From positions 105,772,001 through 105,836,000 of the forward strand of contig OY740782.1 in assembly GCA_963514005.1 (NCBI GenBank): DNA of 64,000 nucleotides, in the 5' to 3' direction. Position numbers and translations under genes: made by a program. The DNA comes from Raja brachyura (lineage: Eukaryota). The notes below the pieces were generated by a model that was not told where the DNA came from, made no database searches, and saw only the letters and a program-made list of their open reading frames with translations. Positions 3,062-48,661 of the stretch are shown here, one piece after another (position 1 is the first letter of the stretch; each line of letters starts with the position of its first letter).

Positions 3062-3432
3062 ATGAATGAATGAATAAGTTTATTGGCTAAATATTCACAT
3101 ACAAGGAATTTGCCTTGGTGATCGGCCCACAAGTGACAATGACACACAGTGACAGTTAGGAAGACACATAAAACATTACACATTAATAATAAAACATTAT
3201 TGATTAAACATGTGAATTAAGTGAAATATCAGAACAAAAGGAGGCTACAAATTTTTGGTTATTGAGTAGAGCTACGACTCGTGGAAAAAAAGCTGCTTTT
3301 ATGTCTGGCTGCGGCAGCTTTGACAGTCCGGAGCCGCCTTCCAGAGGGAAGTGATTCAAAGTGTTTGTGGCCGGGGTCAGAGGGATCAGAGATGATCTGA
3401 CCCGCTTGCTTCCTGGCCCTTACAGTGTACAG
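3062..3432 (-). mobile_element. Rex1/Babar-type LINE 3' end
   Basis: IISDPSDPGHKHFESLPSGRRLR....ARHKSSFF C-terminal motif; (ATTC)n tail. Confidence 0.75.
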
Positions 3433-4020
3433 TTCATGGTCATAGTGGTCAATATGATTAGGAGGCAAGGAAGGAAAACAAGGTATATTGATTTTCAACT
3501 ACCCAGAAATGAAGTATCATATGCAAGCCACAGAAAAGCACGAAAAATGAAAATTTGTTTCAGTTTTCACTCTTCTGCCCAAGTTCCACCAGGAAAGTTC
3601 ACAAATAATGTTCACCTCACTTTTTGTTTGATCAGAAATCTCTCTAACCCCGTTTTCATCCTGTGTTTGCTAATATTACCGTAATTGCTAAAAATGTAGA
3701 CCGCCCGCTAGAGGCATTTGCAAATGTGCAAATGACTGATGAAATGTTATGCAGGACAACCAGAGCTGATAAACACTAGAGGGTGTCATTGTTCCTATGT
3801 TATAATACACTGCAACCAGTGCCTACTTCAAGACAGGAAGTTTGTTTTACGCAAATTTAATCCTTTGACTTAATGCTTTTACCCTAGAGCAGGTCCAGCT
3901 GAAAGGAGGTAAAAAGCAGCACATTTCCACCCACTTCACAAGCCTAAACCAGTCCAGCAAAATGCTTCCCCAACTTCAGCACAACCCAACCACTCTGCTC
4001 ACAAAGTAACTGCAATGAAT

Positions 4021-4647
4021 TGTTAAAGAAGGAACTGCAGATGCTGGAGAATCGAGGGTTACACAAAAAGCTGGAGAAACTCAGCGGGTGCAGCAGCATC
4101 TAAGGAGTGAAGGAGATAGGTGACGTTTCGGGTCGAGACCCTTCTTCAGACTGGTCAGGGATCAGGGAAACGAGAGATATAAACAGTGATATGGAGAGAT
4201 AAAGCAAGAACAATGAGTGAAAGATATGCAAAAAAGTATTGGTGATAAGGAAAGCAGGCCATTGTAAGCCGTTTCTGGTGTGAAAATGAGAAGCTAACGT
4301 GACTTGGGGGGGGGGGGGGGGGGGGAGATGGAGAAGGAATGTCAGGGCCCGAGGGCTGAGGGAGAGGTGGGGGGGTGGGGGGGTGGGGGGGTGGGGGGAA
4401 AGGAGCAGTCTGGGTTAACAGAAATGGGGAAATTCAATGTTTAAGCCCAGAGGATGCAGACTCCCCAAGCGGAATATGAGATGCTGTTCCTCACACTTGC
4501 GGTGTTGTTCACTCTGGCCATGGAGGAGGCCCAGGACCGAGAGGTCGGATACGGAGAATACGAAATTCAGAAATTCAGAGGGTGAGGCAGCATCTATGGA
4601 GCAGAGGAAATAGGCAACGTTGTGGGTTGAGACCCTTCTTCAGACTG
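4021..4647 (-). mobile_element. Penelope-like 3' fragment with terminal repeat, plus a second partial terminal repeat (4578-4647)
   Basis: Minus strand encodes DLSVLGLLHGQSEQHRKCEEQHLIFRLGSLHPLGLNIEF; near-identical to the reverse complement of ~21230-21697. Confidence 0.85.
4122..4149 (-). ncRNA. Minimal type I hammerhead ribozyme core (Penelope-associated)
   Basis: CTGAAGA, stem II GGGTC-TC-GACCC, GAAAC-GTC with a palindromic ACGT stem III; stem I is only ~2 bp. Confidence 0.65.
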
Positions 4648-4664
4648 ACAAAGATGTACTATAC

Positions 4665-4764
4665 CTGTGAGTTATTATTGTTAAAACCGACGCATGTATT
4701 CAAATGTACACATTGTTTTGGAGTTCTGCAGTTATAAACCATCTGTACGAACATGTAATCTCAG
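4665..4764 (-). pseudogene. Candidate decayed exon (CUB-like peptide)
   Basis: Acceptor cttttccacag| and donor cag|gtatag; reads EITCSYRWFITAELQNNVYI*IHAS. The domain resemblance was judged by eye only. Confidence 0.3.
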
Positions 4765-5036
4765 CTGTGGAAAAGCATATTTGGAAATCTACCTTCATGT
4801 TCTTTTCGTTACTAAAATAAATCTCCCATTAATAAAAAGGGGAAAAGAACACTGCTGTAAATAAATAGGCTTCCCCGAATCAAAAATAAGAAAAATATTG
4901 AAAAACTGCAAGAATATCCAATTTTTGTACTGGAAGATGTAGAATACTGTTTTGGAATGTAGCAAAATAAAGAGCATTTAAATTTAGAAAGAATTTTCTA
5001 GAATGCCAGATCAGAGCAAAGCAAAAGTTCTCTTAC

Positions 5037-5187
5037 CAATATAACCAGCCCTCAGGGCACATACCAAGTTATACCACAAAGAGGTTTGGATCGATGAATC
5101 AGTGTACTCGGACTTTCCGGGCAAGGCACAATCAGAAGGGATTACAGTTCCACTTGGGCATCAGTATGCAATGTGATTTTTTGAGTA
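5037..5187 (-). pseudogene. Candidate decayed exon (LDLa-like peptide)
   Basis: Acceptor atttttatgcag| and donor ttg|gtaaga; reads AY*CPSGTVIPSDCALPGKSEYTDSS. All three frames contain stops. Confidence 0.3.
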
Positions 5188-5486
5188 CTGCATAAAAATA
5201 TCCGTCCAATTATTTTGTTGAAGCAGCCATTCACCCAGACCTTTTTGTGGAACGTAAAAGGAAATGCTTGTCAAAGAAGCCCCATGATTAAATCCCCCTC
5301 CCATCCATTCAGGTTAAAGCATTTGGTTGAAAGGTTAAAGAGAAAGAGAAAACAACCAGAAGAATATACAAAAGTTGTGAAGGGCACAAATACAGAAAGA
5401 GAATAAACAAAGAAATACAAGTCACAAAATACATACATTTGTGAATGGTAGCACCTCAGGTCATGTAACCGGGGAGATAAAAACTT

Positions 5487-5629
5487 AGATACATTAAAAA
5501 ATAAATTGGATAGGCATATGGATGAGAAGGGTATGGAGGGTTATGGTATGAGTGCAGGCAGGTGGGACTAAGGGAAAAAAGTTGTTCGGCATGGACTTGA
5601 AGGGCCGAGATGGCCTGTTTCTGTGCTGT
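5487..5629 (+). mobile_element. CR1 3' end split by the DIRS insertion; its tail resumes at 10014-10036
   Basis: Matches the intact CR1 end at 53570-53733 (...gtgctgtaattgttatatggttatatgg). Confidence 0.85.
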
Positions 5630-6230
5630 AATAGTAAGATTAAACGAGAACTTACCTGTTCGAAGTTTGATCTTTATTTCATGAGGAGTTACGATGAGGG
5701 ATTACGTGAAGAAGCCCCGCCTGGCGCTGGATCGGCATACTTCAAAGCAGCGGCATGAAAAACACTGAACCAATAGGCGGAGTAAGATAGTAAGGCTCAA
5801 AAATAGACTAGAACTACCAGACGATCATTTATATTATGAGGGTTGGGAGTGGAGGGCACGTAATCCCTCATCGTAACTCCTCATAAAATAAAGATCAAAC
5901 TTCGAACAGGTAAGTTCTCGTTTAATCTTACTATTTTACTTCGGAGTCACGTGAGTGACTACGTGAAGATTTTAAAGCTCTGTGTTTTTTTATGTCGTAA
6001 ATTCATTCCATACGACTCTCTGTTTAGTCAACACAGTAGTGAGTAAATAGTATTTTAAGACATTGTTACAATTTATGTAATAAGTCTTTCAGCCATAAAA
6101 AAGAACAGCTTTTTAAAAAAATAATAACCCCTCTATCCCAGGGGAAAATTACAAAAAGAAAATTGACAAAAGATGTCAATGATAACATAAATCGATAATA
6201 TAAATTGATAATATAAAACAAAGCAAGCAT

Positions 6231-7188
6231 TTAAAGAGAACCCAGTACTGTGTGTCCAAACCCTGGCACCGTGACAACAGGTTTATTGTAGAACTTTGAA
6301 AATGTTTCTACTCTACCCCACCCTGCGGCCTCTAAAATTTTATCGAGTGGTACATCCTGTACCTTCGCCACGGACGCAGCTGCCTCCCTAGTGGAGTGAG
6401 ATTTAAACACATCAGTGTCTATTCCTGCTAGACCCAAACCTGTTTTAACCATCTAGAAATGGTTTGAACTGAACTTTATATGTGGCTTTTTGCGTGTTAT
6501 CAATAACGCTTTCTCAGAACCTCTGAGATTTTGGTTACCTCAATGTATTGAGTTAAATGCTTAACTACACACAATGTTTCATCAATAGGATACGCTTTAA
6601 ACATTACCTTAATTCCAGTTCTCCCTGGTCTGCTTTGTTTGATCAGGTCATAAACATAAACACAATGTTATCTGTAGTCACATGCATGCAATCCAACCGT
6701 AACAATTGCAAAGTTTGTACTCTTTGAGCTGATACCAATGCCATTAACATAACCACCTAAATGTTAATTTCTGCAAAGACATTGATGTAATTGGAGCCCA
6801 TTGTTTCAGCAAAATGAGAACAATGCTAACATCCCAAATTTCTGTATATCTGGGCTTGGGAGGATTTTATTAAAATACCTTTCATGAATCGGGATACTAA
6901 TGGGTGAGACCCTACTGAATCCCGATCAGAAATATGTCCTAAATAGGATGACAATGCACTACAAGCACAATTAATGACACTATAGCTCAAATGCTCATCA
7001 AGTGTAGCCCAGCAAGGAACTCCAAAACATTTGAATGTTTGCAGTATAAGATATCTTTGACTGTGTACAAAACTTCCCATTTTGTTATATGTGACAAAAA
7101 TTGTTTTTTAGTGCTATTCCTCTAAGCTACATCTATACAACCAAGGTCCTGTCCAACAGTTCAACTCTTGCAATGGTCTGGTCAGAAC
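6231..7188 (-). pseudogene. DIRS tyrosine recombinase, frameshifted
   Basis: LSYSVINCACSALS, VGSHPLVSRFMKGI, FKSHSTR, AAGW.....FSKFYNKP motifs, spread over several frames. Confidence 0.85.
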
Positions 7189-24161: not shown

Positions 24162-25136
24162 TCACTGGGGAGTAGCCGAATGTCCTCGGCCTGCATTCAG
24201 TACAGCTTCTGCAAACATTCCAGGAGCGGTAATAGGTTTATTATAAAACCGTTGAAAGGTGGCTTCACTGGCCCATCCCGCTGCGGCTAGTATATGGTCC
24301 ATGGTACCTCCATGACCTTTGCCGCCGACGTTGATGCAGCCCCGGTGGAATGGGATTTAAATACATTAGTATCTATACCTGCTTCGTTCAAAACGATTCT
24401 GAGCCATCTGGAGATTGTCTGTACCGTCACTCTATGGTGAGATCTCTTATGGCTGATTAGCAAGTATTGCTCCATTCCCCTTAATTTCCACGTCACTTTA
24501 ATATAGTGGCGGATGTAGCCTGGCATCAGCGGGGTATGCTGGAAACACCAGCTGCAGACCTGTAAATCCAGGCCTGTGCTGTTTAAGCAATTCATCAATA
24601 AAGAAAATAACCTTTTCTGGGGTAGAGATCATTCTATCAATCTTGATCTTATGAAGAGTCTGTACCCTTTGTGCCGAAGTAAGTGCCAATAACATCACCA
24701 ACTTCAGGGTGAGTTTGTCCAATTCAAGCCCAATCATGGGCGACCACGTCCTGAGCAGGGTCAGTACATTCCCAATATCCCAGGTAACGTTGTAACGCGG
24801 TCTAGGCGGATTGGAATTAAATATTCCCCGCATCAGTTTGGACACCAACTTATTGGATCCTACCTCCAAATTGAGGTAGTATGATAGTGCGCTCCTGGCG
24901 CTGTTGATGGCACTATAGCTGAGGTGTTCGTCATGATGTAACCCCGCAAGGAACTCCAGCACATCTGTGATTGACACGGAGTCATATGCAATGTCCAAGC
25001 GGCCGCAGTAGGTTTCCCATTTCCTGATGTGCGATAAATATTGCCGTCTTGTGGACTCCCTGCATGATGCTCCTATGGTATCCATGGTCCTTGATGATAG
25101 GCCATACTTCAGTAATGGCCTGTTCAAATCCTGCAA
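24162..25136 (-). pseudogene. DIRS tyrosine recombinase with two frameshifts (~24515, ~24300) and HSTR changed to HSTG
   Basis: LSYSAINSARSALS, LALTSAQRVQTL, TISRWL, FKSHSTG, then DHILAAAGWASEATFQRFYNKP in a third frame, ending at TGA 24162. Confidence 0.9.
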
Positions 25137-27133
25137 GCCAATAAATTCAAATGACTATGGCAGGGATGTGGTTCCCCTGTAACGGGGTTCGTCACCAATA
25201 GTGGGCAACCCTCCAAGAGGACCCATGGTTGACTGATCATACCAAGGACCACTGGATACCATGACTGAGTAGGCCAGTCAGGTATGATAAGGATGCCATT
25301 AGCAGCATCTAGCTGGATTTTCCGCAATACCCGACTGATGAGGCAAAATGGGGGAAATGCATAGAAAAACCATTTCCCCCAGTCTAGCGAGAAAGCGTCC
25401 ATCGCCATTGCCCCAGGATCTGGCTCCCATGATACATATGTTGGTACCTGATGGTTTAACCGTGACGCAAAAAGGTCAATATCCGGCTTACCAAATTTGG
25501 CTGTAATTTGTTCGAATATTTGGGAATTCAACATCCACTCGATGTTATCATTGAATTTCCGTGACCTGGTGTCCGCCACGATGTTGAGCTTACCTGGTAA
25601 ATAGGTAGCTGAAATCCAAATATTCCTTTGAATACACCAGAGCCAAATTGTATTAGCCAATTCATCACATGAAATTGACCTGGTACCACCCATATGATTT
25701 AGATATGCCACCGCAGTGGTGTTGTCTATTTGGAGACGGACATGAGTGTCAGTAAAGTTTGAACAATAAGCTCTGAGTCCGTGGAATGCCCCAAGCATCT
25801 CCAAATAATTTATCCCTTGTGCTAACAAAAGGGTAGATTCTAGTGAGTCCCATCTGCCCCCACAACTTGTGTTGTTGTCTGTAGCTCCCCAGCCATGGGA
25901 GCTTGCGTCTGTTTGTAAGTATACCACCGGACGAGGCACAATGATGGGTTTAAATGAGTTATGGATATTATCAATCCACCATTGTAACTCAATTTTTGCC
26001 TTGAGTGGCAGCTGCATAGGTCTATCAAAATGTCCAGCATTCAATTTTAATGCTGAAATCTTGGATCTTTGTAAATTTTGATAATGTAAAGGTCCAAATT
26101 GAGCAGCTCGAAAAACTGCTACGATTTTCCCAATTACCTTAGCAGTTTGTCTAATTGATGGCATACTGGCGCAGACCAGGTTCTTGCATGTTTGGATGAC
26201 ATCCCCAACCTTGTTAGTTGGTATGGTGGCAATCATGTGATTGGAATCTATCGTGAACCCCAGATAGTCCATGATCTGTGAAGGACAGAACTTTGATTTA
26301 TCTAGATGGATAATAAATCCCATTTTTTGGAATATATCCACAGTGGCTGAAACTGCCAATTTTGCTGATTCCAATGTATGCCCAATAATGAGGATATCAT
26401 CTAGATAAGCCATGACCGTGTGATTTGCCCTCCTCAGTGTGGCTAACACTGGCTTGAGTAATTTGGTAAATAGTCTAGGGGCTGTGGTAAGCCCATTGGG
26501 CAAAGCTTTATATTGCCAAAGTTGATCCATCCAGATGAATTTCAAGAACTTCCTGTGATGTTTCTGAACGGATACTGAATAGTATGCATCTTTCAAGTCA
26601 ATGCATGCCATGAAGCAGCCCTCAGAAATCAAAGATTTGGCTGTTTCAAACGTGTCCATTTTGAAATGGGTATATTGTACAAAGGTATTCAAATGGGTTA
26701 GATCTATAATGACCCGACATCCACCATCTTTTTTGGTTTTAGTAAATATATTGGATACAAACTCAACCGGCTCATGTGTAGTTCTTTCTATCACACCTTT
26801 CTCCAGGAGTCTTAATATTTCAGCATAGCCTACTGCTGTTTCCTTCTTGGAAAGTGCAAATCTGCGATTCGGCATATGCTGAGGTGGAGGAATTTGGCCA
26901 TTTGTAAACTCAATCTCATAACCCTGAATACTTTGTAGAATAAACTCATCTGAGGTGATGGTTTCCCATGCCTCCTTGAACCCCCGTAACCTACCCCCAA
27001 CATGTGAGGTTAGACATGCCAGTGTATGAAAACCAGACCCCCTTACCTTCATGGTTATCGGTGGTCCCTGACGTTTTTGGTGGGACGTGGAGGTGCTGGG
27101 TTGCGCTGGAAATACGGAAACCGCATTTTCCAT
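25124..27133 (-). CDS. pol: DIRS Pol: reverse transcriptase, RNase H and adenine-methyltransferase-like domain (likely real start is the ATG at 27052)
   Basis: Uninterrupted 669-aa ORF: IDLKDAYY, LPNGLTTAPRLFTK, YLDD (RT); TDAS..GWG, INYLE, DN.T, AD..SR (RNase H); IDLFAS..N, DAF..DW, YAFPPF, P.WP.Q.W (MT). Confidence 0.95.
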   Translation of the reverse strand: MENAVSVFPAQPSTSTSHQKRQGPPITMKVRGSGFHTLACLTSHVGGRLRGFKEAWETITSDEFILQSIQGYEIEFTNGQIPPPQHMPNRRFALSKKETAVGYAEILRLLEKGVIERTTHEPVEFVSNIFTKTKKDGGCRVIIDLTHLNTFVQYTHFKMDTFETAKSLISEGCFMACIDLKDAYYSVSVQKHHRKFLKFIWMDQLWQYKALPNGLTTAPRLFTKLLKPVLATLRRANHTVMAYLDDILIIGHTLESAKLAVSATVDIFQKMGFIIHLDKSKFCPSQIMDYLGFTIDSNHMIATIPTNKVGDVIQTCKNLVCASMPSIRQTAKVIGKIVAVFRAAQFGPLHYQNLQRSKISALKLNAGHFDRPMQLPLKAKIELQWWIDNIHNSFKPIIVPRPVVYLQTDASSHGWGATDNNTSCGGRWDSLESTLLLAQGINYLEMLGAFHGLRAYCSNFTDTHVRLQIDNTTAVAYLNHMGGTRSISCDELANTIWLWCIQRNIWISATYLPGKLNIVADTRSRKFNDNIEWMLNSQIFEQITAKFGKPDIDLFASRLNHQVPTYVSWEPDPGAMAMDAFSLDWGKWFFYAFPPFCLISRVLRKIQLDAANGILIIPDWPTQSWYPVVLGMISQPWVLLEGCPLLVTNPVTGEPHPCHSHLNLLACRI

Positions 27134-28197
27134 GCTGGCCGTTGAGGGCCCAGCCCTAAAAAAGGCCTGGGCTGTTGAGGCTGTTGGTACATAGGAGGCG
27201 CCGGAACGTAGGTCCTTGTTGGCCTATCGGTAGGACCTCGTGGCCTGAAAAACTGTGTTTTCTTGGCCGTCTGTCTGGTCACGGTGTGTGACCTCATCAG
27301 ACCCACTGTTTTGGCATGATCATCTAGGTCTTTGACCTGCTTCGGGAGGTCTTCACCGAATAGCTGCCTGGGTGGTGGTGTTGGAGGTGCTCTACATAAC
27401 CCCGCAAATTTGGGGTTTAATATCGGCTTGATAATACTTTTCCTGAAAGCATTAATTTCGTATTGCGTGTTGCAAAGTAGAGCCAGTGCATCCTCCTGTT
27501 CGATGCTCAAGTCCACTCCATCCACCGACCTTGCAAACGCAGTAATCCCAGATGTGAGCAACTTCAGGGTTCTCTGTAATTTTACTTCCTGAGTGCGAAT
27601 GCCCGGGCTGATATTGCCCCAAATCGGCATATTGACTGTAGGCACATTGAGCGAATTACAATTGCCCGGCGCCTTGTGTCTATCCATGGCCTTTGCAAGG
27701 ACCTCCTCCTGTAGTTGATGATTCGTGAGGAAATCTATGGTAGCAGCCAGCTTGGTATCGAGGGGTTGGCCCGATGAAACGGGTAATCCAAACTTGGCTG
27801 CCACGTCCAGGAGCTCTTCCTGGGGAACTTCAGGTGCAACTGGGGCATGTACCAAAATTTCCTCCTCTTCTGGCCTCATGCTGCCCATAGATGATGGGGA
27901 TATGTTCATAAGTCCCCTGGAACTGTGGGCTTCCTGTCTTTGATTAAGCAGGAGTTGTTCCATTATCCTCTCCATCCGGTCTATGCGCCCTTCATCTTGC
28001 ATGAATGGGCGATTAGAGTCCTCATGCCCGAAGGAACTTCTGAGGCTCCTATCATCGGCCCGTACCTCGTCGAGGTAATGTCGGTGCCGTGACGGTAAGT
28101 CGCTTCCAGCCGCCTCAGTAATACTGAACGACTCCCGCGCGGATCTGCTCATACGCCTTCTTTTGGCTGAGCTGCATCCGGCTGCCTCCGAGGGCAT
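27055..28197 (-). CDS. gag: DIRS ORF1 (gag-like), C-terminal part
   Basis: 380-aa ORF directly upstream of pol; PGNC..L.VP.VN..IW, D/E.KLQ and LFGEDL motifs. Confidence 0.85.
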   Translation of the reverse strand: MPSEAAGCSSAKRRRMSRSARESFSITEAAGSDLPSRHRHYLDEVRADDRSLRSSFGHEDSNRPFMQDEGRIDRMERIMEQLLLNQRQEAHSSRGLMNISPSSMGSMRPEEEEILVHAPVAPEVPQEELLDVAAKFGLPVSSGQPLDTKLAATIDFLTNHQLQEEVLAKAMDRHKAPGNCNSLNVPTVNMPIWGNISPGIRTQEVKLQRTLKLLTSGITAFARSVDGVDLSIEQEDALALLCNTQYEINAFRKSIIKPILNPKFAGLCRAPPTPPPRQLFGEDLPKQVKDLDDHAKTVGLMRSHTVTRQTAKKTQFFRPRGPTDRPTRTYVPAPPMYQQPQQPRPFLGLGPQRPAWKMRFPYFQRNPAPPRPTKNVRDHR

Positions 28198-28218
28198 ATG
28201 CGGTGATAAGTCGGCACC

Positions 28219-28818
28219 CTACGCCTCGGCGTGGTGACCCGACATCCGCGCGGGCTTGCCGACTGTCCTTTTTCTGGACCCAGACGGCGTACGGTCCCGT
28301 CCATCCCCCAGCGGGGGAAGCGGTGACCGTGGCGAGCCTCCACCTGTGTGACTCCTCCTGGTCCGACTAGGTGGTGAGTCTCTACTGGCCCTCCTTGGTC
28401 TGCCAGTGGACTCAGGTCTCGCTGCTACACCAGGCCGCGATCTAGCGGCTCCTGGTGAACCCTCTGCCCGAAAAGGGCTAGGTTCTCGAGCTCTATCCCT
28501 GGCTCTACTATGAGGGCTCAGGGAGAAGGGCCGTGCAGCAGCACGTAAACCCTTTTTGCTCGCCTCTGCCAATGATCCAGTTGGCGAGAGGGAAATGGAG
28601 TCAGGGTCCACCTGCTCCGGCGCTATTCCGACTTCTTGCTCTGCGGGAACCCCGCTAGAGCTCAGCTGTGCCGGTGATTCGGGTCCTGTGACTACAGGGC
28701 TCCCCGATTTGCACGCCTTTTTCCCGGTCCTTCCAGCGGGTGCTGTAGAAGGGAACTCCGGGCTTGGTGGCCTGCAGATCCTTCCGGACGTCCTGCGGCC
28801 CTTACTTCTTCTGTCCAT
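28219..28818 (-). CDS. DIRS ORF1 N-terminal Ser/Arg/Pro-rich part, in frame with 27055-28197 across a single TAG
   Basis: ATG at 28818; TAG at 28219-28221 is followed by seven sense codons and then the ATG at 28197 in the same frame. Confidence 0.6.
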   Translation of the reverse strand: MDRRSKGRRTSGRICRPPSPEFPSTAPAGRTGKKACKSGSPVVTGPESPAQLSSSGVPAEQEVGIAPEQVDPDSISLSPTGSLAEASKKGLRAAARPFSLSPHSRARDRAREPSPFRAEGSPGAARSRPGVAARPESTGRPRRASRDSPPSRTRRSHTGGGSPRSPLPPLGDGRDRTPSGSRKRTVGKPARMSGHHAEA

Positions 28819-29114
28819 GTTTCTCTGTAGGAAAAAATACTAACAGACAAACCAACCAGCTCAAGGTTGATTATACTTACCTGAGTTGGTCCTTATGAGG
28901 GCTGGTGGTGAGCCGCGCTCCTCCTCCAGCCGTCGACTGCAAATGCGAGCGACGATATGTCGCGCATGCGTGCTGGCGGGTTCTTCACGAAGTCACTCAC
29001 GTGACTCCGAAATGAAATTGTATTACATAATGTATGTACAGAGTGGAATACAATGAGCGAATAAACACACGCAAGTGAATTCTGTTCTGAAGCCAGTTTT
29101 TCAAACTCTATGCC

Positions 29115-38279: not shown

Positions 38280-38935
38280 ATGCTTCAGATTTTCAATGTT
38301 GATTGGCTTACAGGCATGCTCACTACCACATGTGTCTTTACGGTTCCTGCCTCTGCCTTCTACCTCGGTTCCAGACATCCAAATTCAGATCCAACTTGGA
38401 TTTTGCTTGGGCAGTTTACAACCCAGTGGTATGAGTGGGTTACACAAAAAGCTGGAGAAACTCAGCGGGTGCAGCAGCATCTAAGGTATAACCCTCCTTA
38501 GATGCTGCTGCACCCGCTGAGTTTCTCCAGCTTTTTGTGTAACCCTCGATTCTCCAGCATCTGCAGTTCCTTCTTTAACACCAGTGGTATGAGTATTTGT
38601 TTCTCAAACTTCAAGTAATCCTTGCATCCCCCCTCTCTCCATCCCTCCCCATCCAAGTCACACCAGTTTCAAAGTCGTCTTATTGAGTCTCATTGTCTGT
38701 ACTTTTTTCAACTAGGCCACAGCTAACAATGGGATGTTTCCTTTACCATCATTACTTCTTTTTGCATATCTTTCATTCTTTTTTGCTATATCTCTCCACA
38801 TCACCGTCTATATAGCTAATTTCCCTTTCCCCTGACTCTCAGTCCGAAGAAGGACCCAAAACGTTACCTATTCGTTTTCTCTAGAGATGCTGTCTGACAC
38901 ACTGAGTTACTACAAATTTTTGTGTCTATCTTCTA
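38280..38935 (+). mobile_element. Old Penelope fragment carrying a nested younger palindromic Penelope terminus (38437-38580)
   Basis: 50-bp perfect inverted repeat 38437-38486 / 38496-38545; flanking duplication CCAGTGGTATGAGT at 38423 and 38581. Confidence 0.8.
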
Positions 38936-44006: not shown

Positions 44007-44824
44007 ATACAGGTTTTCTGAATAACTAGGTAAACTGAATCTAGTTTGTCTGTCCTGCTACTTACTTCTTTAAAGTATTCCAGAAGAGCTCCCCTTCACA
44101 GTACCATGCTGATTTTGTTCTATTTTATCATGAACTTCCAAGTACTCCGTAGCCTCATGCTTTATAAATGCCTCTTAAAATCTTACCAACCACTGAATTC
44201 AGACGAACCGGCATATAGTTTCCACGATTCTGTTTTGCTCCCTTCTTGTACAGCGGGGTAATATTGGCAATTTTCCAATAGTCTGAAACCACTCCAGTCT
44301 CTAGCGATTCCTGAAATATCACTATAATGCCTCTATCTATCTTTCTTTCTTTCTATACATCTATCTATCTATACATAGCTAAAACTCTGATCTTGTTATG
44401 TTCCAGTTTGGCAGTCTTTCTATTTGCGCAAAAACGGTTCGCGATAGCGCTACGATATTTCGGCAGTTCACTCACCGTTCTCCTAGGCGGCGAATGCACC
44501 AAGTTTTGTTCCGATCGGTTGATCGGTCTTAAAAACCGCTCGAACGCAGATCGATCTCTTCTCCTGCCAATCAGCGCCGTGCGGATTAGCCTTTCCCCTG
44601 TCGCTCCCCGGGACGGTCTGCCCCTTCCTGCGCCATTGCGTATTTACAGGGGCTGAGGATGGCCAGCGCAGTTTTCCAACCACACTTTCGGAGGGACGCG
44701 AAGCAGCCCCGCCCCAAGCAGCCCGGCCTCAAGCAGCCCGGCCCCGCCCCAAGCAGACCCCCCCAAGCAGCCCCCCCCCCCCCAAGCAGTAGCCCCGCCC
44801 CAAGCAGCAGCCCCGCCCCAAGCA

Positions 44825-44878
44825 GAGGTGGGAGATTGCAACCTTCACGTGGTCCACCCTGTTTCGACTAATGTAATC
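44825..44878 (+). ncRNA. HDV-like ribozyme (one P1 mismatch)
   Basis: P1 GAGGTGG/CCACCCT, P2 GATTGCA/TGTAATC, P3 ACC/GGT, L3 TTCACGT, J4/2 CTAA. Confidence 0.7.
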
Positions 44879-44952
44879 AACCTGGCGTGCACAATCAAAT
44901 AGAACAAGTTGTCTTCCAACTTTAGGCTGTGCACGCCATACGCAAGACGAAA
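44825..44952 (+). mobile_element. Short retroposon headed by an HDV-like ribozyme, copy 1
   Basis: Target duplication CCCCAAGCA; homologous to 48103-48221. Confidence 0.8.
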
Positions 44953-47052
44953 CCCCAAGCAGCAGCATAGCCCCAAGCAGCAGCCCAGCATTGGAGACCC
45001 GACCCAGCCCAGCCTTGGAGATGTCGCCAAAGGGAAAGCGGAGGCTCAGATCCCGGAGGCGGAGGAGAACGACCAGTGACCAGTGCCCGCAATGAGTCCC
45101 CATCGCACCGCCAATTCCAGCCACTACCCCTCTGGTCCCCCCCTCCCCCGTGATGCCCCCCTCTCCCCATGGCTCTCTCCCGTGTTTTTTTCTGAGCTCA
45201 CTACCCCCCCGCTCATACACCCCTCTCGCCCGCAACCCTCAACCGCCCACACACCCCTCTCCTGCCACACAACCCCCCGCCTGCCCACACACCCCTCCCC
45301 CCAAGTCCCCCTGCCCACACACCCCTTTCCCCAAGTCCCTCTCCCCCACACACACCCCTCCACAAGTTCCCCTGCCCACACGTCCACATACACCACATCC
45401 CCACATGCACCACCCCCTCCCGCCCACATGTACCACCACCTTCCCACATGTACCACCACCTTCCCACTTGTACCACCACCTTCCCACACGCACCGCCCCC
45501 TCCCCACATGCACCGCCCCCTCCCCACACACACCACCTTCTCCCCACACACACCACCCCCACATGCACCTCCCCCCCCACATGCACCACCCCCCTCCCAC
45601 ATGAGACACGCCTGCGCAGTTAGGGGCTATGGATGAGTGGTGGTATATTGCGTTGGGGGAACAGGTTGTGTTGAGAGAACGGGTAAGTGGTGGAATATTG
45701 CGTTGGGGAATAAGTTGCCTCAGGTGACCAGGCCTCCTCTGTGATTGGGACCCAACGGGTCCCACTTCATCTAATAATTCTTAAAACCACCTCTTTTATC
45801 ACCCTCGGATGCAGTCCATCTGGTCCAAGTGACATATCCACCTTCAGCCCTTTCAGCTTCCCAAGCACCTTCTCTTTAGTAATAGCCATTCAACTATTAC
45901 TGGCTCTCTTAAATTTCACCCCCTGGCTCTCTTAAATTTCAAGCATGTTCCTGGTGTCTTCCACTGTGAAGACTAATGCAAAAGGTTATTCAATTCCTCT
46001 GCCATTTATTCCCCATATCACTATCTGCAATTTAACTGCAGCGGTTTACTATTTAAATAAAACAAACATGCATTCTCGATTAAGTTTGCTGCAGCTTGCT
46101 AACATGGTAGAAATGGTATGAATGTAATTTATAACAATATTAATAATTTGTTAAATATTATTAGATTTGTATTTACACACTGTTGTCTTTTCAAAATGGT
46201 TGTTCCAGGTATACACAAGATGGCTTGGATGTTTTTGTAAAAGTAATGAATTATGGAGAAGTCTAAGATAACTGGAACCTGGTAGAAATGAAGGAACACC
46301 TGGTGTAGGAGATAATGTGTGGGCAAAAACAACACGTTATCCTTGACCTTTTGCTGATTAATATGACGGTGCTGCAATTGTACATTGATTGCCATGTTAA
46401 ATTCACTACCAAAAGATGCATCTAGTAATTAATGGCATATCCACTCTTTTGAAACATTATAATCAGTTTTTGACCCTTGATCGATCTTTCAACCTGAAAA
46501 GTGAACAATTAAAATGTGTGATGTCTCACCTCAAGACATTAATTTTAAGATTTAAAGAGTGACATTTTAAAATGTCACTGTTATTTCTTTTTTTTTGCTT
46601 CCATATTTATAGAATCTAATTTAAGATCAAACCATCCCTAATGCACAGGTGTAACCTAATGAACTAGTGTTCGAGCAGTGTTTCACATCTGCAAATTCTT
46701 GCCTATTTTGCTTTAGATATGTTTTTAAAAAGAAAATCTTATTTAATGGTAACAAGAAAATTGAAAACATGAGCCCCCTGGATTTAAAAATAATCCTGCT
46801 CGGATATTAAAGTCATTCAGGCAGAAGCAGCAATACCTGGTTAGGAATGTTAAAACCAGGAAAGCTTCTGTGCCCTGTTTTAAGAACCTGCAGAAGTAGG
46901 GGTAGATACTTATTACATCCTCCAGATTTGAACCAGAACAAAGACAAGGCAGGATGTGTAGGAAGGAACAGCAGGATCATGTAGGAAGGGACTGGTTTAA
47001 AGCTGGGAAAACTCAGTGGGAAAGGCAGCATCTCTGGAGAAAAGGAATGAGT

Positions 47053-47080: not shown

Positions 47081-48102
47081 AATAGTCATGGGAAAGGGAA
47101 ATAAGAGAATATCTCTCCAAATCATCATCTGTATCTCTCTGCATGGTTTAGTCTTTCTCATCTTACAAAGGGCGAAGAATAGACTTATTTTAATTCCCAA
47201 ATAATACCGACAATTTGTGGCCTTTATAATGAATTTACAATCCATATCACAGGATATCCTAACCAACATTACAGTTAGAATCAAGCAAACCACAATGATG
47301 GTTCAAAGCTATATTGTCTAGATTCCAGGAACTGCTGCAACAAGTATAAGCAATTCATCTGGACAATACTACTTCATAAACCAAGAGGCACCCAACCTTA
47401 ACCTCCCATCCACAAACTATATCAGAGATGTTTTTTTCCCCATATGTGATCAGTGTAGTCTTACATTCCATGTTAATGAATATTTTAAATATCCTCTTGT
47501 GAATCACTTAAAGGATGAATCACTTATGGCAATTTTGAAAGATTAATAACAAATCAGAATTAGATTATGCGATATCCTCCTTATGGGATTAGGCATGAAA
47601 CACTTTAAAATATTTTGCAAAAGATACAGCAAAGACAAGTTTGGATAATCTTAACTTTATCGGAGTGACTGAAATTTCACGATTTTGTTTGCTCAATATT
47701 CGCCCGTGGTTTTGGGAGCCTTTCTCAAATAGACCACAAAACACCTCATTAAAGTGCTCCAGAAAATGCAACAAAGTGTCTGTCATTCTAAGCCTGGAGA
47801 ACATAAAGCAGGCTAGTGTTGAAATGGCTGTTGGAAAATTGTACAACTTTCCCATCTTATAGCTTTTTCACTTCCTCAGAAATCTTTATGTGAAGGGAAG
47901 CCTCATGCGGCAGACAGCCTGGGCCTTTTTTGGATTCAAAAGAAGCAATTTACCACAAGCTCAGTATAGACTGGATGATGAGTCAGAAGTGTGCCCTTCT
48001 TGCCATGGGTGTTTTTGTGGATAGTTGTGGATAGGGGAATGGGGGCTTTGAGAGGGAGTCAGAGGAATGACGCTGGCTTCATTACAGATGAGATATAGTG
48101 AG

Positions 48103-48156
48103 GGGGTGGAAGATTGCAACCTTCATGTGGTCCACCCTGGTTCGACTAATGCAATC
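48103..48156 (+). ncRNA. Minimal HDV-like self-cleaving ribozyme
   Basis: P1 GGGGTGG/CCACCCT with G1-U wobble, P2 GATTGCA/TGCAATC, P3 ACC/GGT, L3 TTCATGT, P1.1 GG, no P4 stem (TTCGA), J4/2 CTAA with the predicted catalytic C at 48146. Confidence 0.8.
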
Positions 48157-48221
48157 GGATAAGATCAAATAGAACAAGTTGTCCTATAACTTTAGGCTGT
48201 GCACCACCATATGCAAGAAGA
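48103..48221 (+). mobile_element. Short retroposon headed by an HDV-like ribozyme, copy 2
   Basis: 12-bp target duplication AGATATAGTGAG (48091-48102 and 48222-48233); (AAG)n tail. Confidence 0.85.
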
Positions 48222-48661
48222 AGATATAGTGAGAAATCAGGACTGGTGTTGAGGGAAGAGGTGGACGAAAGAGACAGATGGGGTTGTGTTAAGTGTTTGG
48301 GGAAAGGCCATACAAACCCATTTGTATGGCTGTGGCCAGTTCAACCCTTTCCACCAATATTCCTCCCTGGTTTCACATTTCACACCTCTTCTGTCCTCTC
48401 ATTTTCTAACCTTGTCTTTGCACCACTGTCCTTTGTCTAATCATTTCCCAATCAAATCCCCCTCATCTCTTTCCATCTATCACTTGCCTGACTTTATCCC
48501 ACCCTCTCCTCTCTTCCACCTCTTCACTCCACCCCAATCCGATTATAATCAGACTAAAGGGTCCTGTCTTGAAATGCTGTGTATTGTCCTCCAGAGATGA
48601 TGTCTAACCCGATGAGATACTGCAGCACTTTGTGTCTTTTGCTGTGACCAGTTGTCACTTG

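Follow-up and report, generated by a model that had tools for sequence, protein, structure and literature searches.

A ~135-bp retroposon of Raja brachyura built from the two ends of a Vingi-like LINE, with a predicted minimal HDV-like ribozyme at its head

Ribozyme-headed elements made from LINE ends

The overall architecture of short elements that join a ribozyme to the 3' end of a LINE is already known from NARTc, RIME and the R2 SIDEs. NARTc and RIME, which derive from L1Tc and ingi, are derivatives in which an internal deletion has brought the 5' end of a LINE next to its 3' end, and they insert at dispersed sites (PMC3383444, PMC4035085). Their HDV-like ribozyme (Pr77/L1TcRz) cleaves before position +1 (PMC3383444), and in NARTc this active ribozyme doubles as a promoter (PMC3383444, PMC4035085). 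The R2 SIDEs and R2/R1 hybrid SIDEs of Drosophila likewise combine a ribozyme with a LINE 3' end, and the R2 SIDEs are thought to be freed from co-transcripts (PMC3414825). The derivatives of Vingi-1_EE and the bipartite LINEs of RTE, Ingi, Vingi and R2 arise by the same kind of internal deletion (PMC5786205), and a review notes that some non-autonomous SINEs use HDV-like ribozymes (PMC6765202).

How does the element at positions 48103–48221 of the Raja brachyura DNA analyzed here, a stretch of 64,000 nucleotides that we call the window, compare with these systems? We propose, with a probability of about 0.8, that it belongs to a ~135-bp family of non-autonomous retrotransposons in which a 3.1-kb Vingi-like LINE is reduced to its first ~75 and last ~45 bases, and that its predicted HDV-like ribozyme head would free the RNA at G1 for copying by the LINE protein. 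The observations behind this proposal are ends shared with the LINE, target duplications, an (AAG)n tail, 5' ends at G1, and a fold that is conserved across LINE families. The family resembles NARTc and RIME in its joined LINE ends and dispersed insertion, with the difference that cleavage, established for them, is predicted here (PMC3383444, PMC4035085). NARTc is 263 nt long and its ribozyme comprises 77 nt with a P4 helix, whereas the present family measures ~135 bp and has a 54-nt head without P4; NARTc and RIME end in poly(A), whereas this family ends in (AAG)n and its partner LINE, which would belong to a sister clade of the NARTc and RIME partner, has no RNase H (PMC3383444, PMC4035085). 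Also unlike NARTc and RIME, the family numbers ~25,000 copies in a 2.7-Gb genome. The R2 SIDEs, in contrast, are confined to rDNA and are described as rare, while the present family is spread genome-wide and has an APE-type LINE as its partner (PMC3414825).

The fold at 48103 and its counterparts in related LINEs

All features of the window copy lie on the forward strand. The 54-nt minimal HDV-like ribozyme fold occupies 48103–48156, is identical in origin to the 5' end of the partner LINE, and begins with G1 (48103), the predicted cleavage site. P1 (48103–48109 with 48132–48138) opens on a G1-U wobble and is separated by J1/2 (AA) from P2 (48112–48118 with 48150–48156), which is paired at seven of seven positions; P3 (48119–48121 with 48129–48131) is capped by the 7-nt L3 (48122–48128). 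J1/4 (48139–48140) is followed by a 5-nt remnant of P4 (48141–48145) and then by J4/2 (CTAA, 48146–48149), whose first base, C48146, is the predicted catalytic cytosine equivalent to C75. The hallmarks of the HDV fold are present: the G1 wobble, U20 and G25, C22 with the G of J1/4, and a C that is first in J4/2 and is followed by N-A. There is no P4 helix, as only 5 nt separate J1/4 from the C75 equivalent, and the same holds for a second mini-family described below. Misfolding of the P4 remnant could produce a UUCG hairpin of 2 bp and so sequester the catalytic C. In its nested double pseudoknot, its short loop in place of P4 and the position of its catalytic C, the head resembles drz-Mtgn-1 and the theta ribozymes (PMC10879173). 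According to the survey that describes them, ~99% of minimal HDV-like ribozymes are in phages and none came from the eukaryote genomes searched, whereas the fold described here heads a retrotransposon (PMC10879173).

The fold at 48103 is far beyond chance. A strict HDV descriptor, built from general HDV rules and composed after the element had been seen, matches the two strands of the window at 48103 only and has no match in 100 shuffled windows; a relaxed version matches both window copies and gives 12 matches in 30 shuffles. Minimum-energy folding, which is limited to pseudoknot-free folds, ranks the element no better than shuffled sequence (z 0.40 to −1.36). An Rfam scan of the window names neither copy (48103 or 44825), and one family copy gives a sub-threshold match to HDV-F-prausnitzii (16 bits, E 0.81). 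Separately, an inverted pair of a common short repeat at window positions 38383–38580 forms a long hairpin and is the source of spurious sub-threshold Rfam matches.

Behind the ribozyme lies a spacer derived from the LINE 5' UTR (48157–48175), from which ~16 nt including the 5' arm of an end-pairing helix are missing. A 7-bp hairpin is predicted at the deletion junction (48176–48192), with one mismatch in this copy and a loop that differs among subfamilies. The LINE 3' end (48179–48221) contributes the last ORF codons with the stop at 48193–48195, the 3' arm of the end-pairing helix (48198–48204) and the (AAG)n tail (48215–48221). The element is flanked by an exact 12-bp target-site duplication (48091–48102 and 48222–48233). 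A second copy (44825–44952) has its ribozyme at 44825–44878 with one mismatch in P1, a 9-bp duplication (44816–44824 and 44953–44961) that lies within a tandem repeat, and an intact 11-bp end-pairing helix (44883–44893 with 44928–44938).

The stems, L3, the P4 remnant, J4/2 with C48146, the 12-bp duplication and the start of the second copy at 44825 had all been placed at these positions by an earlier sequence-only reading of the window, and each was recovered there; the Rfam search which that reading had suggested gave the result above. Two of its statements hold for the window copy and not for the family. P1.1 is present, but GG in J1/4 is a peculiarity of this copy: nt 38 is T in 64 of 67 family copies, and because J1/4 therefore reads GT, P1.1 in the family is one G-C plus U-U. 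Similarly, the size of ~120 bp describes the window copy (119 bp), which is short by ~16 nt relative to a family of ~133–137 bp. The exact deletion junction of the window copy has only 32 matches, and in the 25 examined the bases that mark the subfamilies are mixed; for both reasons the ~16-nt loss points to a recurrent deletion between short repeats rather than to an amplified subfamily. The window copy, in which the end-pairing helix has lost its 5' arm, probably gives rise to no further copies.

Could the element instead be a classical Pol III SINE whose head merely resembles a ribozyme? It is short, very abundant and free of any run of four T, and positions 48139–48147 of the window copy look in part like a B-box. 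However, this look-alike depends on the private GG, so that the earlier statement that Pol III boxes are absent needs this one qualification. There is no match to GWTCRANNC in either copy, the window contains 0 tRNA genes, in agreement with the earlier observation that a tRNA head is lacking, and the head is the 5' end of the LINE itself. We consider a Pol III origin very improbable.

The fold is also found in related LINEs. Among 27 metagenome loci that encode a related N-terminal part of the ORF, six (five of them distinct) carry it 95–402 nt upstream of the ORF match, and in none of the 27 is it found at any other place or on the opposite strand. A looser descriptor gives nine good matches in 26 metagenome loci; the remaining 17 are without a good fold, and some of them end too early upstream. 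More than one type of base pair occurs among seven heads at six of seven P1 pairs, seven of seven P2 pairs and two of three P3 pairs, with U20, C22 and G25 fixed; this pairing is partly by construction, as the descriptor picked the heads, and the control is their sense-strand position before the ORF. An alignment of 17 heads by MAFFT was left out of the pair counts because it misaligned the 3' strand of P2, a consequence of the differing lengths of P4. The C of J4/2 is also constant across metagenome heads with widely different stems. All of the metagenome LINE heads have a real P4.

The partner LINE and the amplification of the family

A pattern for the end of the ORF ahead of the shared tail occurs at 207 places in the genome, and the 20 that were read are the ends of 5'-truncated LINEs that share this tail and contain a Cys/His motif. 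Walking upstream from such ends leads to near-complete copies of ~3.1 kb that start with the family head. In locus L111 this head is 95% identical to family nt 9–72; L155 begins at G1 and has the duplication at both ends; L151 also carries the family head; and L159 is a ~500-bp deletion form with the same head. The start codon lies ~100 nt past G1. The reading frames match APE and RT domains, and a domain scan of them gives no match to RNase H. The closest intact relative among those listed is 69% identical and 1,019 aa long; the intact relatives are APE-RT proteins of ~1,000 aa, and the RNase H family is absent from the 120 listed. All genomic copies of the partner LINE that were seen are broken, and the single ORF is read from these intact relatives. 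The predicted layout, one ORF that encodes APE and RT but not RNase H in a total length of ~3.1 kb, is Vingi-like: Vingi elements have a single ORF with APE and RT and without RNase H (PMC13708176), and Vingi-2_Gav is listed at 3,128 bp (PMC5786205, table). Heads of the sister LINEs discussed below match labelled Repbase Vingi heads in a comparison by eye. In the RT tree CR1 is the sole outgroup and reference proteins of Vingi, Ingi and RTE are not among the rows; the L181 row comprises 70 residues and L337 has a long branch, and both placements are unsure. A PDB search with the RT frame gave 0 matches, and a faint Pfam similarity between a piece of the RT and an exotoxin domain, at E 0.027 and below the cut-off, was set aside as chance. 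One copy of the partner LINE (L152) is itself interrupted at 3410–6484 (+) by an intact CR1-like ORF of 1,025 aa. Elsewhere in the window, at 24498–28839 (−), is what we take to be a DIRS/Ngaro-like element with long open frames, one RT/RNase H-like (699 aa) and one recombinase-like.

The sequence-only reading had described a SINE that uses a partner LINE and had proposed looking for a LINE with the same two ends, for 5' ends at G1 genome-wide and for covariation in P1, P2 and P3. Such a LINE exists in the same genome, 66 of 70 copies start at ribozyme nt 1–5, and the pairs vary among homologous heads with pairing kept. The designation as a SINE has to be revised: the head is the partner LINE's own 5' end rather than an independent module, and the element is therefore a LINE with an internal deletion, of the kind known from NARTc, RIME, the R2 SIDEs and the Vingi-1_EE derivatives.

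The abundance of the family was estimated from exact patterns. In the 2.7-Gb genome a 35-nt head pattern has 5,518 matches and a 20-nt body pattern 11,349, with 0 for either reversed control. The initial 27 Mb of contig C1 contain 47 head matches and 100 body matches, and 22 of the former fall together with one of the latter. From this overlap the family is estimated at ~24,000–25,000 copies, which is probably a lower bound. These numbers also bear on the idea that the copies are deletion products of individual LINE insertions and not a self-amplified family. Internally deleted LINE copies of other sizes do exist (L159, L136), but by exact patterns the copies outnumber the LINE 3' ends ~50-fold (11,349 versus 207), and thousands of them share one junction and subfamily bases, each with its own target duplication. 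The idea is refuted, and we leave it a negligible chance.

The 5' ends were surveyed in the first 70 of the 100 body matches listed, which are chosen by the tail half of the element. The head is present in 67, the alignment runs from nt 1 in 54, and exact duplications of at least 8 bp flank 41 of the 67, ending directly before G1 in 20 and at most 3 nt away in 36. A junction common to many copies, the target duplications and the (AAG)n tail are features of a family that amplified by target-primed reverse transcription. The two main subfamilies contain 37 and 21 copies, with medians of 3.3% and 6.6% from their own majority sequence. A perfect fold is kept in 25 of the 67 copies and a relaxed fold in 29, a low share that is expected under neutral decay at such distances (median 3–7%). 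The catalytic C of J4/2 is kept in 62 of 67, and the base after it varies by subfamily (T in 40, G in 20, A in 4, C in 3). The three head positions that differ between subfamilies are structurally neutral: nt 8 is in J1/2, nt 32 is a pair-preserving change in P1, and nt 45 is the base after C75. At the family junction, ~10 nt are not matched exactly by any LINE copy seen. Among the 70 body-selected copies, a pyrimidine precedes G1 in 40 of 51, against 50% in the flanks. Near-identical sequence occurs in sequencing runs of at least seven organisms. Contigs from three runs break at G1 with varied flanks (their RNA status is a guess, and two metagenome runs are not counted); these breaks show neither transcription nor cleavage.

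A second mini-family (L288, L290–L296) of ~140–170 bp also has a P4-less HDV-like head and an (AAG)n tail. It repeats the layout with a 5-nt P4 remnant, with other sequences in P1, P2 and P3, and has an ORF-end-like segment ahead of (AAG)n.

Do the 5' ends at G1 reflect cleavage? They are equally expected from an internal promoter that starts at +1 (PMC3383444), and the earlier description of the element as promoter-less is unproven, as L1Tc and NARTc use the same 5' end as a promoter and as a ribozyme (PMC3383444). The head might serve mainly as an internal promoter from which Pol II starts at +1, as in Pr77, and the P4-less fold might be a weak or vestigial ribozyme. For this reading there is the precedent of Pr77/L1TcRz (PMC3383444), dispersed insertion favors an element with a promoter of its own, the loss of P4 may slow cleavage, and starts at G1 are compatible with either model. 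We nevertheless judge it unlikely: every pairing and the catalytic base are kept in the LINE and in all subfamilies, a second family with other stems is also without P4, and P4-less ribozymes are active in vitro (PMC10879173). The promoter and ribozyme roles of the head are not mutually exclusive.

If, as we favor, the head acts as a ribozyme, we propose the following route. First, a copy would be transcribed by read-through from a host promoter. Second, the ribozyme would cut before G1. Third, the segment behind the ribozyme would pair with the 3' end, closing the RNA and presenting both ends together. Finally, the APE-RT protein of the LINE would nick DNA, prime on the (AAG)n tail and copy up to G1. 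The predicted pairing of the third step extends over at least 8 bp in 40 of 67 family copies; the second mini-family has a 12-bp end pairing of unrelated sequence in three of six copies, and in a third LINE family (L337) it is weak, with only 5 and 7 bp in single copies. It is absent in seven metagenome LINEs checked, three or four of which are without a true 3' end. End pairing would account for the origin of the mini-elements, as the enzyme would skip the looped-out ORF, and for 5' inversions of the LINE that capture its extreme 5' end.

Inversions were found 10 times in 50 LINE loci picked by sequence from the middle or the 3' part (with one copy present twice). Seven of the ten begin within the ribozyme, with the joined body 0.4–2.9 kb downstream, and one begins in the 5' UTR, likewise far from its joined body; two are ordinary local inversions. 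In 16 of 18 inversion junctions the head starts at nt 1–13, with no clear donor flank, and one has up to ~25 nt unassigned. Unusual 5' inversions, in which the LINE's extreme 5' end has been inverted although it lies far from the truncation point, are present at L061, L065, L071, L079, L093, L094, L109, L112 and L124–L146. The twin-priming model provides the framework for reading 5' inversions. Read by this model, the junctions suggest a template RNA that ends at about G1, with this 5' end close to the priming site, which is what end pairing would predict.

CPEB3-like heads of sister families, and significance

The CPEB3 ribozyme (RF00622) resembles the family in its G1-U wobble, U20-G25, and a P1.1 of G-C plus U-U (PMC4836649, PMC8233481). 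In contrast to it, the head of the window family has no P4; neither the window copies nor family copy L060 matches RF00622, and the LINEs with CPEB3-like heads are on another branch of the RT tree, where they form one group (99/99) apart from the partner of the window family. At the RF00622 cut-off of 35 bits, the head of one metagenome LINE (1 of 12 loci) scores 55.6 bits. In the R. brachyura genome 32 of the 41 matches listed are above the cut-off, sister Vingi heads reach 65.8 bits, and 14 control genomes give none. The CPEB3-like head of L337 is followed directly by a full LINE ORF; other such heads adjoin inverted LINE fragments.

Several sister elements carry heads of this type. L337 (170–3113) is a Vingi-like LINE of which L338 and L339 are deletion forms ~340–400 bp long, and L286 is a ~95-bp form of an L337-type LINE with its junction at the predicted end-pairing helix. 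Two further head families are above the CPEB3 cut-off (L270, L272, L278, L280 and L283; L274–L276, L284 and L285), and one of the two has most of the stem sequence of the CPEB3 consensus P4.

The 5' ends of Repbase Vingi-2_Gav, Vingi-4_Crp, Vingi-2_SPur and Vingi-1_BF are printed in a supplement (PMC5786205). Compared by eye with the Rfam CPEB3 consensus, Vingi-2_Gav is equal at 52 of 54 positions outside the tip of P4, and the likeness extends to stems whose sequence differs freely among other families. A Vingi remnant is recorded for the human genome (PMC5753468). In the alligator, the tRNA-headed SINE2-1_AMi has a CPEB3-like Vingi head right behind its tRNA part (PMC5786205, supplement); this head, if active, would sever the SINE's own promoter. 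CPEB3 is nowhere mentioned in the text of PMC5786205, terms for an origin or a transposon do not occur in PMC8233481, and CPEB3, ribozyme and Vingi were not found together in the literature searched. From these sequence comparisons we consider it likely that the CPEB3 ribozyme descends from a Vingi 5' end, a proposal that concerns the sister families and not the head of the window element. To a broader proposal we give even odds: that Vingi-type LINEs are generally ribozyme-headed and have an RNA closed by end pairing, which would generate two-ended mini-elements; that hardly any known self-processing retroposon is smaller than the 135-bp family, whose P4-less ribozyme has 54 nt; and that the mammalian CPEB3 ribozyme is an exapted Vingi 5' end.

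A P4-less ribozyme in a large animal genome, the end pairing, and CPEB3-like heads of Vingi elements were not found in the literature searched, and Ruminski 2011, Kojima 2011 and Webb 2009 may already note Vingi-type ribozymes. If our proposal is correct, P4-less HDV-like ribozymes would extend from gut phages to an animal genome, in tens of thousands of copies, and each copy would be able to cleave the host transcript of its insertion site. Vingi proteins are under development for RNA-based gene insertion (PMC13708176). The present family would be a natural minimal template for them (~135 nt), and the end pairing suggests a testable rule for template design. Finally, the Vingi heads would offer a concrete and testable origin for the CPEB3 ribozyme, which is linked to memory in mammals.
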